Source: an uncultured archaeon | Lineage (GTDB): Archaea; Asgardarchaeota; Jordiarchaeia; Jordiarchaeales; Jordiarchaeaceae | Length of the DNA stretch: 32,000 nucleotides | NCBI GenBank assembly: GCA_964510585.1 | Contig: CAZECW010000146.1 | Location: 1-32,000, forward strand | Reading direction: 5' to 3' | In this document: piece after piece, positions 9,174 to 18,458 of the stretch | How the letters are laid out: each line of letters opens with the position of its first letter | Numbering within the stretch: position 1 is the first letter of the stretch | Position numbers and translations under genes: made by a program | The notes under the pieces: generated by a model | What the model saw: only the letters and a program-made list of their open reading frames with translations | What the model was told of the DNA's origin: nothing | The model's database searches: none

Positions 9174-9944
9174 TTGCTTATAATTTTCTGTGGTGTACCG
9201 AGCATCGGAAAAACTCTGATTGCAAGAAGGCTGGCAATTGAACTTGAGAAATGTGGCTATCCCACTGTTGTTGTGGGGTCAGACGACATTCGTCGACTTG
9301 TTCCCGCACATGTTGAGATGTTCAACCCACAGCGGGAAGAGTTCATAAGGGAAACAACACTACACATGATAGATTATTTTCTTAGTAAGGGAAAAACGGT
9401 AATCAGTGATGATACAAACTATTACAATGCAATGCGGCGAGACCTTATAAAAATCGCAGAGAAAAACAAAACGGATTATGCCATAGTCTACATATACGCC
9501 CCCCTGGAGCTTGCCCTAAAGTGGAATAGGGAACGGGGAGAGCCCATACCCTCCGAGGTGATAAATAGGATCCATGACAGATTCGATGTTCCCGGTAAAA
9601 AGTATAAGTGGGATCAGCCTATTGCCATTATTGACAGATCCAAGGAATCAGTGGAAGATTCTGTTAAAATAATTCTCCAGAAACTCAAAGAAGGGAAACC
9701 TCAAAAGAGCGGTAAGCCCCAAGTCTTGTATAAGGCGGGCAAATCTGAAGAAATCGACCAACTTACACGCAGAATCGCTGGAAAAATTTTGGAGGAAAAA
9801 GGCGACAAGATGCTGGCCCGGCGAATAAGCGCTTTGAGAAAGGGTTTTGTTAGGGAAGCGGTTGAGAAGAATTTAACTCTGGAACAGGCTGAGAAGGAGT
9901 TCGTCAAGAAGGTAAAGAGTGTGATCAATGGTGAAAATTTCTGA
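9174..9944 (+). CDS. pstK: O-phosphoseryl-tRNA(Sec) kinase
   Basis: P-loop [49 protein letters not shown] as in methanococcal PSTK. selB, SepSecS and tRNA-Sec are nearby. Confidence 0.88.
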
Positions 9945-12267: not shown

Positions 12268-13293
12268 GTGGTGGTGAAATTGGTGAAATTTTACTATGAC
12301 GAAGACGCGGATCTATCAGTATTGAAGGATAAGGTCATTGCAGTTATAGGATACGGTAATCAGGGCCGCGCTCAGGCGCTAAATATGAGAGACAACCATC
12401 TCGAGGTAATAATAGGGAACATTAAAGACTCCTATTGGGACCTGGCAAAGGCTGATGGCTTCAAAGTTTATCCCATAAGAGAAGCCGCCAGCAAAGCCGA
12501 TATAATATCTTTCCTTATTCCAGACGAGCTTATGCCCCAAGTTTACGAGAAGGAAATCCGAGGCGAATTATCCCAGGGAAAGGTTCTCAACTTTGCGTCG
12601 GGTTACAACATAGGTTTTGGCTTAATCAAACCCCCCAGTAACGTGGATGTGGTTATGCTTGCACCTAGAATGATTGGAAAATATGTGCGTGAACTATTCG
12701 TTAAGGGAGAGGGATTCCCCAGTTTTATAGCAGTGGAGAATGATGCCAGCGGGAGAGCCAAAGACATAGTTTTGGCTTTGGCAAAAGCTATAGGCTCCAC
12801 TAGGGCGGGCGTGCTTGAAGTTACTATGGCTCAGGAGGCCTACATGGACCTATTTACAGAGCAGGGCACGGGTCCAATCATCGGCAGAACTCTGATGGCT
12901 GCCTTTCAAATTCTGGTGGAAGCCGGCCTCCCTCCAGAAGCTGTACTAATAGAGTTGTACATGTCCGGTGAACTGGGACTTGTTTTCCAGACCTTTGCCG
13001 AAACGGGAATCGCGGGACAAATGGAGTTACATTCCCAAACCAGCCAGTATGGATCAATTAGTAGGAGCTTGACCCTCAAATTCGATCCCATTGTTGAACA
13101 TCTCAAGAAGGTGTTTGAAGAAATAAAAAGCGGGGCCTTCGCAGAAGAGTGGAAGAAGGAACAGGAGGCAGGATACCCCAAGTTTAAAGAGTTAAAAGAG
13201 TTATCCAAGCTTAATCCCCTAGCCCCCTACGAGAAAAAGGTTATTGAGGGATTAAGAAGGAAAAAACTGGGAAGCCCCCATAGTTCCCCCTAA
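12268..13293 (+). CDS. ilvC: Ketol-acid reductoisomerase
   Basis: IAVIGYGNQGRAQALNMRD, LIPDE, MLAPRMIG, DLFTEQ, ELHSQTSQYG. Confidence 0.92.
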   Translation: MVVKLVKFYYDEDADLSVLKDKVIAVIGYGNQGRAQALNMRDNHLEVIIGNIKDSYWDLAKADGFKVYPIREAASKADIISFLIPDELMPQVYEKEIRGELSQGKVLNFASGYNIGFGLIKPPSNVDVVMLAPRMIGKYVRELFVKGEGFPSFIAVENDASGRAKDIVLALAKAIGSTRAGVLEVTMAQEAYMDLFTEQGTGPIIGRTLMAAFQILVEAGLPPEAVLIELYMSGELGLVFQTFAETGIAGQMELHSQTSQYGSISRSLTLKFDPIVEHLKKVFEEIKSGAFAEEWKKEQEAGYPKFKELKELSKLNPLAPYEKKVIEGLRRKKLGSPHSSP

Positions 13294-13335: not shown

Positions 13336-14730
13336 GTGCCTGACACTATTCCAGTTCACATAGGGCTTCTGGGTCACATTGACCATGGAAAAACTCAGGT
13401 GGCAAGGGCCCTGAGTGAAGTGGTTTCTACCGCAGGACTGGACAAGCACCCCCAAGCGCAGGAGAGAGGAATCTCAATAGATTTAGGTTTCACATCCTTC
13501 CACCTAAACAGTTACTTGGTAACCCTGGTTGATGCTCCAGGTCACGCAGAACTAATAAGAAGCGTGGTGGCTGGAGCGAACATAATTGACGCTGCAATTC
13601 TTGTGGTGGCAGCTGATGAAGGCCCAAAAATACAAACCGGTGAGCACATAGTTATTCTTGAAAGTTTCGGGATCATTAGGGTGCTTGTAGCTTTAAGCAA
13701 AATGGATTTAGTTTCCCCTGAAAGACTAGAAACAGTAAAGAAACAGGTTAGAAGTATTCTTAAGGGAACCGCCTTAGAGGGGGCGCCCATAATTCCCATT
13801 TCTGCAATTACTGGCGCGGGATTGGAAGAACTCAAGAAAGCCCTTTTAAGTGTTTTATCGCCCCCAAAAAGGGAAAAGGAGGGCCCTTTTAAGATGCCCA
13901 TAGACCACGCTTTTCGCATCAAAGGCGCAGGAACAGTGATAACGGGAACCATTCACAGGGGCAAAGTTTCTACTGGTGACGAAATTGAGATTATGCCCCT
14001 TAAACAAAACGCAAAAGTAAAGTCCATTCAAATCTTCAGAGAGGAAGTAAATGAGGCCCAAGCTGGAGACCGGGTGGGCATCAACATCATAGCAGGACCT
14101 GAACCCGAAAAGATTTATCGAGGATGCTACGCTGGAATGCCGGGAACCCTAAAGGTAACCAACCAGCTGATTGGAAGAATAAAGATGAATAAATTGTTCA
14201 AATATCCTCTCCACCCAGGTGTACGGGTGCACCTCACCGTGGGAATGCCCACAGTCACCGCCACTATGATTCCCTTCAAAACACTTGATGGGAAAAAAAT
14301 CCTTATAGAAGAAGTGGGAAACGAAGATACTTACGACGCCTTTTTCAGACTCGGCGAAAGCGTGGTTGCAGAAGAGGGAACACCCCTACTTATTTCCCGC
14401 CTAGATCTGCCTCCAACAACCCTAAGAATTGCGGGCAGCGGAAAAGTGACCCATCCAACAATTGAACAAACAGAATTCTTTATTGAAAAAATAAAAACGG
14501 GCCGAGTAAAAATCCCTGTTCACTCGAAGGGTAGCGTGGTCGTGGGACTGGCAGAAACAAAGTATGGAGCTGAAAAACTGTTAGATGAAACTGCTACCAC
14601 GGAAAAAGGAAACCGGGGAAAAGTAGTGGACACATTTGGAGGTAAAGGCGCTGTTATAATCAAGTTTGAAAAACCAGTTTCGGAAAACGAAGAAGTTTAC
14701 ATAAGAAAGCTTAAGCCACGTAAACTATGA
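13336..14730 (+). CDS. selB: Selenocysteine-specific elongation factor (archaeal SelB)
   Basis: GHIDHGKT, DKHPQAQERGISIDLGF, DAPGHAELI, QTGEH, MPIDHAFRIKGAGTVITGT, AGDRVG, and a short archaeal-type domain IV. Confidence 0.95.
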   Translation: MPDTIPVHIGLLGHIDHGKTQVARALSEVVSTAGLDKHPQAQERGISIDLGFTSFHLNSYLVTLVDAPGHAELIRSVVAGANIIDAAILVVAADEGPKIQTGEHIVILESFGIIRVLVALSKMDLVSPERLETVKKQVRSILKGTALEGAPIIPISAITGAGLEELKKALLSVLSPPKREKEGPFKMPIDHAFRIKGAGTVITGTIHRGKVSTGDEIEIMPLKQNAKVKSIQIFREEVNEAQAGDRVGINIIAGPEPEKIYRGCYAGMPGTLKVTNQLIGRIKMNKLFKYPLHPGVRVHLTVGMPTVTATMIPFKTLDGKKILIEEVGNEDTYDAFFRLGESVVAEEGTPLLISRLDLPPTTLRIAGSGKVTHPTIEQTEFFIEKIKTGRVKIPVHSKGSVVVGLAETKYGAEKLLDETATTEKGNRGKVVDTFGGKGAVIIKFEKPVSENEEVYIRKLKPRKL

Positions 14731-14767: not shown

Positions 14768-16063
14768 ATGAAGGGACTTATCCCCAAAAACATGCTAGAT
14801 AGAGGCGCTATTGTTCTGGAATCCCAACTGGATTCCCTACGCATACTATTCGAACAGAGAAATATACCTGAAGAGGCGTGGAGTGACTCCCAAATAAGGC
14901 TCCTACTAACGATTCTATCCATGATGGATACAGACAAGGATCCCCAAGCAGCCAGGGTAGGGGAAAGAGAAGCTAGAGTAGCTTCGCCCCTTGTTTCCGA
15001 ACTAGCAGCTAATTTCTGCCACGGCATAGGACGCAGCGGCGAAATATACGCCCCTCAACCTAAAGCACCCGGAGCCTCAATAATGTATGCTCTAGCCAAC
15101 ATGCTGGCCTCTGATGCCATTCGAAGATTCGGAGCCCCAAACTTAAAATACGCCTTCCTGCTCCCCCTACCCACGGGAATGTCAATTGGACTCGCAATAT
15201 CCGCTATGAGACAAAAGAGGAAAGGAAAACATGTGATCCACCCCCGTGTTGATCACAGGTCGCCCCTGAAAGCCATAGAACTTATAGGGCTGGAAACTAA
15301 AATCATCGAGGGCGAGATTAAGGGCGATGCGGTAATCGTTCCCCCAGAGAGGGTGGATGAGGCGATAGACGAGGAGACGCTGGCAATTCTGTCCACAACC
15401 ACCTTTTTCCCACCCCGCGAACCCGACGATGTTAAGGAAATAGCTAAAATCGCAAAAGAACACAACATCCCCCACATAATTAATAATGCATATGGGGTTC
15501 AGAGCAGAGAAATAATGAAAAGAATAAGGTCAGCGGTAGACGCTGGAAGAGTAGACGCCGTTGTTCAGAGTACCGACAAAAACTTCCTTACACCAGTAGG
15601 TGGAGCAATAGTTGCTGCGCCTGAGAGAGAAACCATAGAACGAATCAATGAACAATATGCAGGTAGAGCCACTGCGGCACCAGTAGCACAGTTCCTAGCT
15701 GCGATACTAGCTTTGGGTATCAAAAAATACGAAAGCCTCAGAGACGAACAGGAAAAGAACAGAGAATATCTGGAGGAGAACCTCAAAAAAATCGCAGAAG
15801 AATACGGAGAGAGAGTTCTAAATGTATATAACCCCATAGCCTGCGCCATGTCACTCACTAATAGAGATCCCGCAAAAGTTGGAGGTGCACTGTATAACCT
15901 GAGAGTAACTGGACCCAGAGCATTAGGGCCCACAAGCTACGGGTCCTGCTGCAAAAAGTACCACACAGCCTACATCACAATGAATGCGGCAATTGGAACA
16001 AGAAAAGAGGACATAGAAAAAGCACTACAAAAACTGGAGGAAACCCTAAAACAAACCAGATAA
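14768..16063 (+). CDS. spcS: O-phosphoseryl-tRNA(Sec):selenocysteinyl-tRNA synthase (SepSecS)
   Basis: GLIPKNM, SMMDTDKDP, GEREAR, FCHGIGRSG, QPKAPGAS, NNAYGVQ, STDKNFLTPVGG (PLP lysine). Confidence 0.96.
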   Translation: MKGLIPKNMLDRGAIVLESQLDSLRILFEQRNIPEEAWSDSQIRLLLTILSMMDTDKDPQAARVGEREARVASPLVSELAANFCHGIGRSGEIYAPQPKAPGASIMYALANMLASDAIRRFGAPNLKYAFLLPLPTGMSIGLAISAMRQKRKGKHVIHPRVDHRSPLKAIELIGLETKIIEGEIKGDAVIVPPERVDEAIDEETLAILSTTTFFPPREPDDVKEIAKIAKEHNIPHIINNAYGVQSREIMKRIRSAVDAGRVDAVVQSTDKNFLTPVGGAIVAAPERETIERINEQYAGRATAAPVAQFLAAILALGIKKYESLRDEQEKNREYLEENLKKIAEEYGERVLNVYNPIACAMSLTNRDPAKVGGALYNLRVTGPRALGPTSYGSCCKKYHTAYITMNAAIGTRKEDIEKALQKLEETLKQTR

Positions 16064-16188
16064 TTTTCAAAATAAATAAGTATAGCTAAGAGAGATTCCT
16101 CCTCCCTCGTTTTTGCGAGTTATACTCTTCGAAAGAGTTAAATTTTTTGTTATTCATTATTATTTACTGTTTCGTGACGGGAAAGGCT

Positions 16189-16848
16189 ATGTTGTCAGCT
16201 GATGTTGACGAGTTGGTTAGGGGCTTAAGCGAAGCTTTGCGTATTGTTAAAGTGAAAGGTGAACATTTAGATCTTTTCAGGGTGGCTTATCATGCTGCTA
16301 CTTCTCTAAAATCTTACTGTGTGGATTTTTCTGATAAAAGTGGTGAGGCCCCTCATAGTTTTGAGGCGAGGCTTCTCTCCTTAGAGGATGGGGAGAAGGT
16401 GGTGAAGCGGATAAAAGTAGCAGGCGGCCTTGAAGGGATAGAGCTGAAGGTTTGGGGCTCCAACAAAGAAAAGGCAGAGAAGAAAGTAGGGGAATTGTCC
16501 CAAAGAGTTGAGGAAACTCTTTCCAGAATAGGAAAAATGTCTGGTGAAAATGTTCAAAGGTTTCATAGTGCAGTAACAATCGAAAGGAAGTTGGACATGT
16601 CGCTGAATCGTCTCTTAACGGGAGCAACCAGACAACAAGTCTACTTTGACCTGGCCGACGCCAGAGAAAGAATAATTCTGTTATTGGGACACTTTGACTC
16701 CAGCATTATCCAGATGGAAAAAATGTTGGAAGACCTCACAAAACTAGACAAAGACGCACCCATTAAAAAGGAAGTAGGCGAGAAAATGGCTTTAGAAATC
16801 CTTAAATGGAAAAGAAGAATCAGCGACTACATATCGCAACTAAAATAG
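16189..16848 (+). CDS. Hypothetical soluble protein
   Basis: Long open frame with protein-like composition and a helical C-terminal half. ATG at 16189 preferred; no recognisable motif. Confidence 0.7.
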   Translation: MLSADVDELVRGLSEALRIVKVKGEHLDLFRVAYHAATSLKSYCVDFSDKSGEAPHSFEARLLSLEDGEKVVKRIKVAGGLEGIELKVWGSNKEKAEKKVGELSQRVEETLSRIGKMSGENVQRFHSAVTIERKLDMSLNRLLTGATRQQVYFDLADARERIILLLGHFDSSIIQMEKMLEDLTKLDKDAPIKKEVGEKMALEILKWKRRISDYISQLK

Positions 16849-17120
16849 AAAAACAAAATTTCTGGACAAAATACTCTAAAGCCCCTCCCCATAGCATATC
16901 GCCTTAGTGATTTTCGCATCACTGCACTTCTGCGATAAACCCCCAGATGAAAGACATATACAGGGGAACCTCTTTCCCCAGGATGAAATCAGAAAACTAA
17001 GAAGTAACGAGTATATAAAGAAGTAGTAAACCAGCAGTGCTATCGAAAAATTGGCATTCATAAAAAGGAGTGATACTTAGATTCCCCATAGGAGAAATTT
17101 TTTGGCGGCGGACTGGGGGA

Positions 17121-17153
17121 TCTTCGCAAACATACCCTAATAAGAGTACGTGT
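17121..17153 (-). other. tRNA intron 2 (T-loop, 33 nt, strict hBHBh')
   Basis: GGGG/CCCC, TTCG/CGAA helix, ATA and GAT bulges, intron stem CGTACTCT/AGGGTATG. Splicing restores the T-loop TTCGATT. Confidence 0.92.
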
Positions 17154-17207
17154 ATCGAACCCCGAACCCTTGCCGGGTTCCACGGATTTGAAGTCCGGGG
17201 CAAGGGA

Positions 17208-17235
17208 TTGGGCGGAGCCCCTTAGATAGGCTCCT
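17208..17235 (-). other. tRNA intron 1 (D-loop, 28 nt, relaxed BHB)
   Basis: GGGT/GCCC helix flanked by GGA and AAT bulges, intron stem GGAGCC/GGCTCC. Cleavage after the 2nd bulge nt restores a UGGU D-loop. Confidence 0.85.
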
Positions 17236-17477
17236 CCACCCCTGCTTCAGTCCGCCAACAAGTTTTATTGTTAAATTACAGGTTGATTTGAGAGTTATAT
17301 TGTTTTTCACAGCATTTATTTTTGTTTCCAGCGCCCCTTTAATAGTTAAGGGAAGCAGGGCACCCATTTTTAATGTGTGTTATGTATATTTTGACCGACA
17401 TCTTATTATAGCTTGAGTTTTGGTTTTTTGGTGAGTGTTACTAAATTTTTGGAGTTAGTTTGCGGAGTGTGTATTTT

Positions 17478-18458
17478 TTGAGTCTCAGGAATTTGGCTGA
17501 GTCTATCAAAAGCTTTGAGGGTGTTACGAGGAAGAAGCCTATTATTGATGTTACCCGCCCTTTAAGTGAGACTCTTCGTTTTTCTAAAATTGGCGTGGTG
17601 AAGTCGTTTGGTGAGGACTCTGCGGTTCTGGATTTGGGTGGTGAAGATTATCTTTTAGCGGCTACTGATGGAATCTGGCATAAGCTTTTGATGGCTGCGC
17701 CAAAATTTGCTGGTTATTGTTCTGTTCTGGTTAATGTGAATGATGTGGTGGTTAAGGGTGGAGAGCCACTGGCACTATTGGATACTTTGAGCTATGAGGA
17801 TATGGATGTGGCTAAGGGCATAATGGAGGGCGTCCTGTTGGGCTGCGAGAAGTTCGGGGTTCCTGTGGTGGGTGGTCACCTTCACCCCTTCTCATCTACT
17901 TATTCGCTCTCCGTAACGGTTCTGGGACGAGTACCAAGGAATGAAGTTATTTACAGCGATACTGCAAGGCCAGGCGAGTTTATTCTAGCTGCGGTTGATC
18001 TTGAGGGTAAAGTGCATGAAAGTTTTGCTTATGCTTGGGATAGCACTTCTTGGAAGAATCCGGAGTATGTTGAAGAGAAGTTTAAGGCTATGAGGCAGAT
18101 TGCCAAGAGACACTTGGCCACCGCTGCGAAGGATATTAGTAATCCGGGATTGATAGGAACTTTGGGTATGCTTCTTGAGGCCAGTCAGGTGGGTGGGATA
18201 GTTGATGTTTCCGCCATACCTAAACCCAAGGATGTGAAGTTGGAGCAGTGGGTTAAAATGTATCCCGGATTTGGGGTTGTTATGACTTCTAAACCAGAGA
18301 GGGCTTCGGAGTGCCTCGAAATATTTCGGAGTGTAGGTGTTTCGGCGGAGATAATTGGCCGCGTTGACGCTTCGAAAAAGCTTTTAATAGCAGATGACAG
18401 TGAAGTTTGTGAAGTATTTAGTTTTGAGAGAGACCGACTGTCTGGAAAAATTTGGTAA
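17478..18458 (+). CDS. PurM/SelD/ThiL (AIR synthase-related) superfamily protein, resembling the methanogenesis-marker-2 type
   Basis: LAESIKSFEGVTRK, FGEDSAV, ATDGIW, AGYCSVLVNVND, VVGGH, AKDISNPG. TTG at 17478 (GGAG upstream) preferred over 17460. Confidence 0.8.
   Translation: MSLRNLAESIKSFEGVTRKKPIIDVTRPLSETLRFSKIGVVKSFGEDSAVLDLGGEDYLLAATDGIWHKLLMAAPKFAGYCSVLVNVNDVVVKGGEPLALLDTLSYEDMDVAKGIMEGVLLGCEKFGVPVVGGHLHPFSSTYSLSVTVLGRVPRNEVIYSDTARPGEFILAAVDLEGKVHESFAYAWDSTSWKNPEYVEEKFKAMRQIAKRHLATAAKDISNPGLIGTLGMLLEASQVGGIVDVSAIPKPKDVKLEQWVKMYPGFGVVMTSKPERASECLEIFRSVGVSAEIIGRVDASKKLLIADDSEVCEVFSFERDRLSGKIW

Follow-up and report, generated by a model that had tools for sequence, protein, structure and literature searches.

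The minus strand from 17256 to 17103 of the 32,000-nt stretch of DNA that we analysed (the window) is, as read from its sequence, a gene for a selenocysteine tRNA (tRNA-Sec) in three exons, with two tRNA-type introns (Table 1). It is very probably a single functional tRNA-Sec gene whose two BHB introns are cut by EndA, whose exons are joined by RtcB, and whose 93-nt product is used for selenocysteine (Sec). A two-intron tRNA-Sec is not new in kind. It adds a correction of the intron count of one published entry and leaves knowledge of how Sec is decoded unchanged.

Anatomy of the tRNA-Sec gene and its product

When the three exons were joined, ARAGORN called the 93-nt product as tRNA-SeC(tca), and its MFE fold was a cloverleaf. 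The acceptor stem had a perfect 9 bp followed by an AA linker, which together with the 4-bp T-stem makes a 9/4 fold. The D-stem had 7 bp (GCAGGGG/CCCUUGC, with one G.U pair) and the loop UGGU, and both form only once intron 1 is removed. The anticodon stem had six positions, one of them a C.U mismatch, and a 7-nt loop, CUUCAAA. The variable stem had 6 bp and a 5-nt loop, the T-loop was UUCGAUU, and a discriminator G (G73) preceded the encoded CCA. The product thus has the features of an archaeal-type tRNA-Sec: UCA in a 7-nt loop, a 9/4 fold, a 7-bp D-stem with a 4-nt D-loop (D-arm criteria taken from Mariotti 2016), a long variable arm and G73.

The first-pass annotation of this DNA had proposed the cuts at 17235-17208 and 17153-17121. 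Sequence reading and the BHB scan showed these coordinates to be exact, and ARAGORN and the MFE fold reproduced every element of the cloverleaf that it had described, including the single C-U mismatch. It was also right that neither intron lies at the canonical 37/38 site; the sites are in the D-loop and in the T-loop at 59/60.

Table 1. Features in the window and, below them, loci on other contigs of G000, the genome of the studied gene
Feature	Position	Strand	Length	Content or evidence
PSTK-like kinase gene	9177-9905	+		TIGR03574 206.7 bits (below curated cut-off); Pfam KTI12 E = 3e-44
Ketol-acid reductoisomerase gene	12268-13293			between PSTK and SelB
Archaeal SelB/EFSec gene	13336-14730	+		TIGR00475 302 bits (over cut-off); Pfam aSelB_III
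SepSecS gene	14768-16063	+		TIGR03531 511.9 bits; Pfam SepSecS E = 3e-130
ORF flanking the tRNA	16147-16848	+	233 aa	no Pfam match
tRNA-Sec exon 1	17256-17236	minus	21 nt	acceptor 5' strand (9 nt), AA linker, D-stem 5' strand (7 nt), D-loop UGG
tRNA-Sec intron 1	17235-17208	minus	28 nt	D-loop, between loop bases 3 and 4; BHB scan
tRNA-Sec exon 2	17207-17154	minus	54 nt	last D-loop base, D-stem 3' strand, anticodon arm, variable arm, T-stem 5' strand, T-loop UUCGAU
Anticodon UCA (reads UGA)	17191-17189	minus		sequence and ARAGORN
tRNA-Sec intron 2	17153-17121	minus	33 nt	T-loop at 59/60; BHB scan
tRNA-Sec exon 3	17120-17103	minus	18 nt	last T-loop base, T-stem 3' strand, acceptor 3' strand, discriminator G, CCA
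Encoded CCA	17105-17103	minus		sequence
AIR-synthase/SelD-superfamily protein flanking the tRNA, not SelD	17460-18458	+		TIGR00476 44 bits
selD	G000:C193:53368-54288	+		TGA at active-site motif
Candidate mini-intron in selD	about L005:1759-1788		30 nt	between D-V-Y and A-I-G-G; in frame, contains TAA
rtcB	G000:C58:3702-5036	+		578 bits
Candidate mini-intron in rtcB	L151:1559-1588		30 nt	between P-D and A-H-Q-G-Y-G; contains TGA
tRNA-Val(CAC)	G000:C126:4565-4661	+	97 nt	insert in variable region

With either insert left in, ARAGORN made no call, and it made none on the genomic sequence. As the first-pass annotation had expected of standard callers, ARAGORN found no tRNA in the window and Rfam at the gathering score gave no match there. 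At a permissive threshold, the unspliced genomic sequence scored 22.6 bits on RF01852, as against the gathering threshold of 47 bits. In that alignment the anticodon, variable and 5' T-arm parts were placed well while the ends were forced onto insert sequence; exon 2 is the part that the model aligns well even without splicing.

The C.U mismatch is at the second pair of the anticodon stem (17199, 17183). It was fixed in 4/4 genomes of the genus; the corresponding pair in the sister family is U-A. In a genome of another class (G021), the stem is ACCGGA/UCCGGU, with C-G apparently at the corresponding position, where the alignment is gapped.

Junctions and splicing motifs

We surveyed 151 Asgard genomes with RF01852. 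The threshold was passed in 38 of them, nearly always by an uninterrupted gene of 87-89 nt, and by no Jordarchaeia genome. The intron-free genes that we inspected scored 57-67 bits, and all had the D-loop TGGT, the T-loop TTCGATT, discriminator G and an encoded CCA. The proposed junctions recreate the loops of these intron-free genes; therefore, the boundaries defined by homology are the same as the cuts predicted from the BHB motifs. The CCA was genome-encoded in every Asgard tRNA-Sec gene that we read, interrupted or not; according to a 2022 review, CCA is not encoded by archaeal tRNA-Sec genes.

The BHB scan used a geometry of a 4-bp central helix and two 3-nt bulges, with the cut after the second bulge base. 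Both inserts had 4/4 central pairs at the boundaries given in Table 1. Intron 2 has a strict hBHBh' motif: the exon helix is the T-stem (h = 4), h' = 2, UUCG pairs with CGAA in the central helix, and GA↓U and AU↓A form the bulges (arrow, cut site); its BHB conformer was 0.4 kcal/mol above the MFE. Intron 1 has a relaxed HBh' motif: GGGU pairs with GCCC in the central helix, GG↓A and AA↓U form the bulges, and the hairpin within the intron has 7 bp (h' = 7). Its exon-side helix is short (h = 1-2 bp), being reduced to 1 bp because the central helix takes three G's of the D-stem. With 37 C parameters its BHB conformer was 6.7 kcal/mol above the MFE and is not the ground state.

The BHB and folding signal is well beyond chance. 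The fold of the whole precursor had z = -5.46 (0/200 shuffles as good), and its MFE structure kept the cloverleaf skeleton with both inserts as added hairpins. When the boundaries were fixed and the interiors shuffled in 20,000 trials, a canonical BHB appeared in 0.5% of the trials for the D-loop insert and in 3% for the T-loop insert; the quality of the observed motif was matched in none and in 0.6%, respectively. An insert-sized window slid along the precursor gave a canonical BHB at the true position only (1/110 and 1/105).

The scan also found a second register for intron 1, with both cuts moved inward by one base (26 nt, 17234-17209), which would leave a 95-nt tRNA-Sec with the 6-nt D-loop UGGAAU. 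This register too has four central pairs (H GGUG/CGCC, h = 2, h' = 6), and the D-loop region is structurally plastic. However, the 4-nt D-loop TGGT of all the intron-free Asgard genes inspected is reproduced by the 28-nt register only, which moreover has its four central pairs in 9/9 genomes. As the 26-nt register fails to give the conserved 4-nt loop, we gave it low weight and consider it very unlikely.

Conservation of the two introns in relatives

A survey of relatives, which the first-pass annotation had suggested, found the same D-loop and T-loop introns in eight other genomes (G001, G004, G005, G006-G009 and G021). G001-G005 are from the same genus as G000, and three of them (G001, G004 and G005) have these two introns. 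In the sister family (G006-G009) there is in addition a canonical 37/38 intron of 12-24 nt, and in G021, of another class (Atabeyarchaeia), an additional intron of 22 nt in the variable arm. ARAGORN called the spliced products of all 9 genomes as tRNA-SeC. The D-loop intron was at one position with one central helix in 9/9 genomes, with lengths of 16-39 nt, and the T-loop intron was at one site in 9/9, with lengths of 17-33 nt. All four central pairs were present in 22 of the 23 introns of these genomes, and the T-loop motif was strict in 8/9.

The D-loop and T-loop sites are thus occupied in two Asgard classes, and the T-loop site in another Asgard genome (G134), where a single insert interrupts TTCGAT↓...↓T; the third introns are lineage-specific. 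A further Asgard genome, G146, had a canonical anticodon-loop intron only. The tRNA-Sec gene therefore offers a well-anchored single-gene case on a debated point, the ancient origin or repeated gain of tRNA introns in Asgard archaea.

The exons and the introns differed in their conservation. Identity between G000 and G001 was 100% for the exons, 75% for the D-loop intron and 90.9% for the T-loop intron; the corresponding values were 97.8%, 67.7% and 61.8% against G005, and 90.3%, 57.1% and 36.4% against G006. Exon 1 had no differences across the three other genomes of the genus apart from one linker base in G005. A two-sided compensatory change was seen in 6 of the 32 stem pairs across the 9 genomes, including four acceptor pairs and one T-stem pair. 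In 9/9 genomes, the true 3' exon provided a perfect 9-bp acceptor stem and G-CCA.

These patterns bear on whether the gene might be a decaying or silent tRNA-Sec pseudogene, with inserts that are disruptions rather than introns. The C.U mismatch in the anticodon stem would fit such decay, as would the two genomes of the genus, G002 and G003, in which neither BLAST nor an exon-2 pattern found a tRNA-Sec copy. Both of these genomes have a TGA-containing SelD, and the missing copy is probably due to assembly gaps. Against decay, the exons are 98-100% identical between species whose introns are only 62-97% identical, and every stem is maintained by compensatory changes. SelB, SepSecS, PSTK and the TGA-containing SelD are all retained, and no other tRNA-Sec candidate was found in the genome. 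A pseudogene is accordingly most improbable, and we continue with a functional gene.

Published tRNA-Sec genes

The first-pass annotation had mentioned single-intron tRNA-Sec genes in Asgard archaea, and such a gene is indeed published: in Lokiarchaeota, the T-loop of tRNA-Sec is interrupted by an intron of 31 nt (Mariotti et al. 2016, PMC4989117; Santesmasses et al. 2017), named as the sole archaeal case by a 2022 review (PMC9499178). It resembles the studied gene in its 9/4 fold, 7-bp D-stem, 4-nt D-loop, G73 and T-loop interruption, but it has one intron, whereas the studied gene has a second in the D-loop. The further statement that no two-intron case was known did not survive comparison with the literature. 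Supplementary Data 4 of Valentin-Alvarado et al. 2024 (PMC11291895) lists a tRNA-Sec with 3 introns in each of Atabeyarchaeia-1 and Atabeyarchaeia-2, and one with 1 intron in Freyarchaeia (810415-810536). These multi-intron tRNA-Sec genes were found only by Secmarker at a lowered score; the table gives no SeC intron coordinates, and tRNA-Sec introns are not discussed in the text. Judged by coordinates, G021 is Atabeyarchaeia-1, and the listed Freyarchaeia SeC gene is G005:C1:810384-810536 (minus).

For this orthologue within the genus, the published gene has 1 intron in 122 nt, while we find 2 introns in 153 nt. Intron 2 of G005 holds a decoy, TCCTCCAGT, of the true 3' exon, TCCCCCAGT, and the published 122-nt annotation ends just past the decoy. 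Since the published end falls inside intron 2 at the decoy, "one intron" is a probable under-call. On the sequence, the published entry for the genus appears to be misplaced at its 3' end and to lack one of the introns.

Taken at face value, the Freyarchaeia entry would speak for a gene with the D-loop insert only, ending about 31 nt earlier, inside intron 2. Rfam aligned the unspliced gene of G000 in that way in the 22.6-bit match. That alignment, however, has mismatched acceptor and T-stems, and its score is far short of the required 47 bits. The published end in G005 is 19 nt past the start of a strict BHB intron, at a decoy that mimics the true 3' exon, and it is the true 3' exon that gives the perfect 9-bp acceptor and G-CCA in all nine genomes. 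We give next to no credence to a gene with one intron, and retain the reading with two.

The Jordarchaeia tRNAsec was drawn in Fig. 3d of Sun et al. 2021 (PMC9723677) from Secmarker, in a paper from which the word "intron" is absent. That gene is of the same class and gene family as the studied gene; the sister-family genomes examined here have three introns. Heavily interrupted tRNA genes have been described in Freyrarchaeaceae, Jordiarchaeaceae and Atabeyarchaeaceae (Goswami et al. 2026 preprint, doi 10.64898/2026.10.13.758758) and in Thermoproteales (Sugahara et al. 2008). Like the studied gene, these genes are each interrupted by more than one BHB intron, often in the D-arm, and were overlooked by annotators. 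In the Goswami census, selenocysteine tRNAs appear in the methods only, while the studied gene is a specific Sec case.

The suggestion that Sec capacity could be overlooked here does not hold either, because Sec use in Jordarchaeia had already been recognised by Secmarker at lowered thresholds (PMC9723677, PMC11227280). The tRNA-Sec is invisible to ARAGORN and to the curated Rfam threshold, both here and in every Jordarchaeia genome surveyed. A pipeline that relies on tRNA-Sec calls to recognise Sec use will miss cases in these lineages.

Sec genes, splicing enzymes and proposed maturation

The genes for PSTK, SelB and SepSecS are all within 8 kb of the tRNA-Sec gene (Table 1). SepSecS is 86-96% identical to its counterparts in named Jordarchaeia/Freyarchaeia MAGs, and the organism belongs to this class of Asgard archaea. 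The SelD gene is on another contig and carries TGA at its G-U-x-C-K active-site motif, so that a working tRNA-Sec is needed. A GTPase paralogue with "1 TAA" was rejected, as this TAA is its natural stop codon.

EndA is represented by two genes of about 200 aa each, located on G000:C157 and G000:C126. The catalytic subunit had its best match in the Aeropyrum pernix alpha subunit (3P1Z_B, E = 2.8e-45), with Tyr/His/Lys kept, and it aligns through the loop region of the Aeropyrum pernix enzyme. The second paralogue has Thr where the catalytic His of M. jannaschii aligns. Two EndA paralogues are reported in most of the genomes with heavily interrupted tRNA genes (Goswami et al. 2026 preprint). According to PMC5829648, non-canonical introns are cut only by (alpha-beta)2 and epsilon2 EndAs. 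From these alignments, the host has a predicted two-subunit alpha-beta EndA, a type that can act on relaxed or non-canonical sites. It also has RtcB.

We propose the following maturation. A precursor of at least 154 nt would be transcribed. The alpha-beta EndA would cut the T-loop site (59/60), with its strict motif, and the D-loop site, with its relaxed motif. The D-loop motif would form only if three D-stem G's paired with GCCC of the intron, leaving their D-stem partners. RtcB would ligate the three exons. As in the established pathway, the 93-nt tRNA-Sec would first be serylated; PSTK would then phosphorylate it, SepSecS would carry out the conversion and SelB would deliver it. What the sequences show is the anatomy of the gene, the BHB geometry, the conservation and covariation, the enzyme genes and the Sec-containing SelD. 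From them we infer that both cuts take place and at which bonds, and that the tRNA is charged and put to use.

Candidate mini-introns in selD and rtcB

Two protein-coding genes of the genome contain short inserts of a similar kind (Table 1). The selD insert has a relaxed BHB (H GUGU/GCAU, bulges AC↓A and AA↓G) with an 11-bp hairpin that is fully covarying, and its boundaries agree with the protein alignment. It was present in all Jordarchaeia SelD genes with a full-length match and absent from the alleles of other Asgard families. Because it is conserved and covarying in Jordarchaeia and absent elsewhere in Asgard, we regard it as a candidate mRNA intron.

The rtcB insert has H CCCG/CGGG and the same bulge bases as the selD insert (AC↓A and AA↓G). 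It was seen in this genus only, and its stop codon alternates between TGA and TAA among the genomes. Its length in the complete genome G005 is 29 nt; therefore, the gene there is frameshifted unless the insert is removed. If this insert is an intron, making the ligase would need ligase that is already there.

As putative introns, the two inserts show the relaxed HBh' type of the D-loop intron in use elsewhere in the lineage. Ribosomal bypassing was considered for both inserts and is less likely, as the take-off and landing codons differ and the boundaries fit BHB cuts. A genome-wide scan for BHB mini-introns that merge ORFs gave more matches with a pseudo-pair null than with real pairing. It showed no peak in length or bulge and was dominated by junctions of adjacent genes, and its 80-codon flank threshold left out both known cases, selD and rtcB.

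It is conceivable, if rather unlikely, that in this genus the whole Sec route is gated by the tRNA-splicing machinery, through the two cuts in tRNA-Sec and the mRNA mini-introns of selD and rtcB. The costly D-loop motif could then make tRNA-Sec maturation the slowest, rate-setting or regulated step. If so, Sec decoding would be coupled to splicing capacity rather than burdened with a neutral intron load.

Other interrupted tRNA genes in the genome

In this 3.78-Mb, 96%-complete genome, ARAGORN found 5 uninterrupted tRNA genes, and 9 with the intron option, some of them implausible. So few uninterrupted genes at this completeness mean that interrupted tRNA genes are the rule here. The low count agrees with the published figure for the lineage, in which 92-95% of tRNA genes are intron-bearing in Atabeyarchaeia and Freyarchaeia (Valentin-Alvarado et al. 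2024, PMC11291895).

The best RF01852 match of the genome, G000:C126:4565-4657 (26.2 bits), was considered as a second tRNA-Sec and rejected, as it is tRNA-Val(CAC). The tRNA-Val gene has an insert of about 21 nt in its variable region, which is probably another non-canonical intron.
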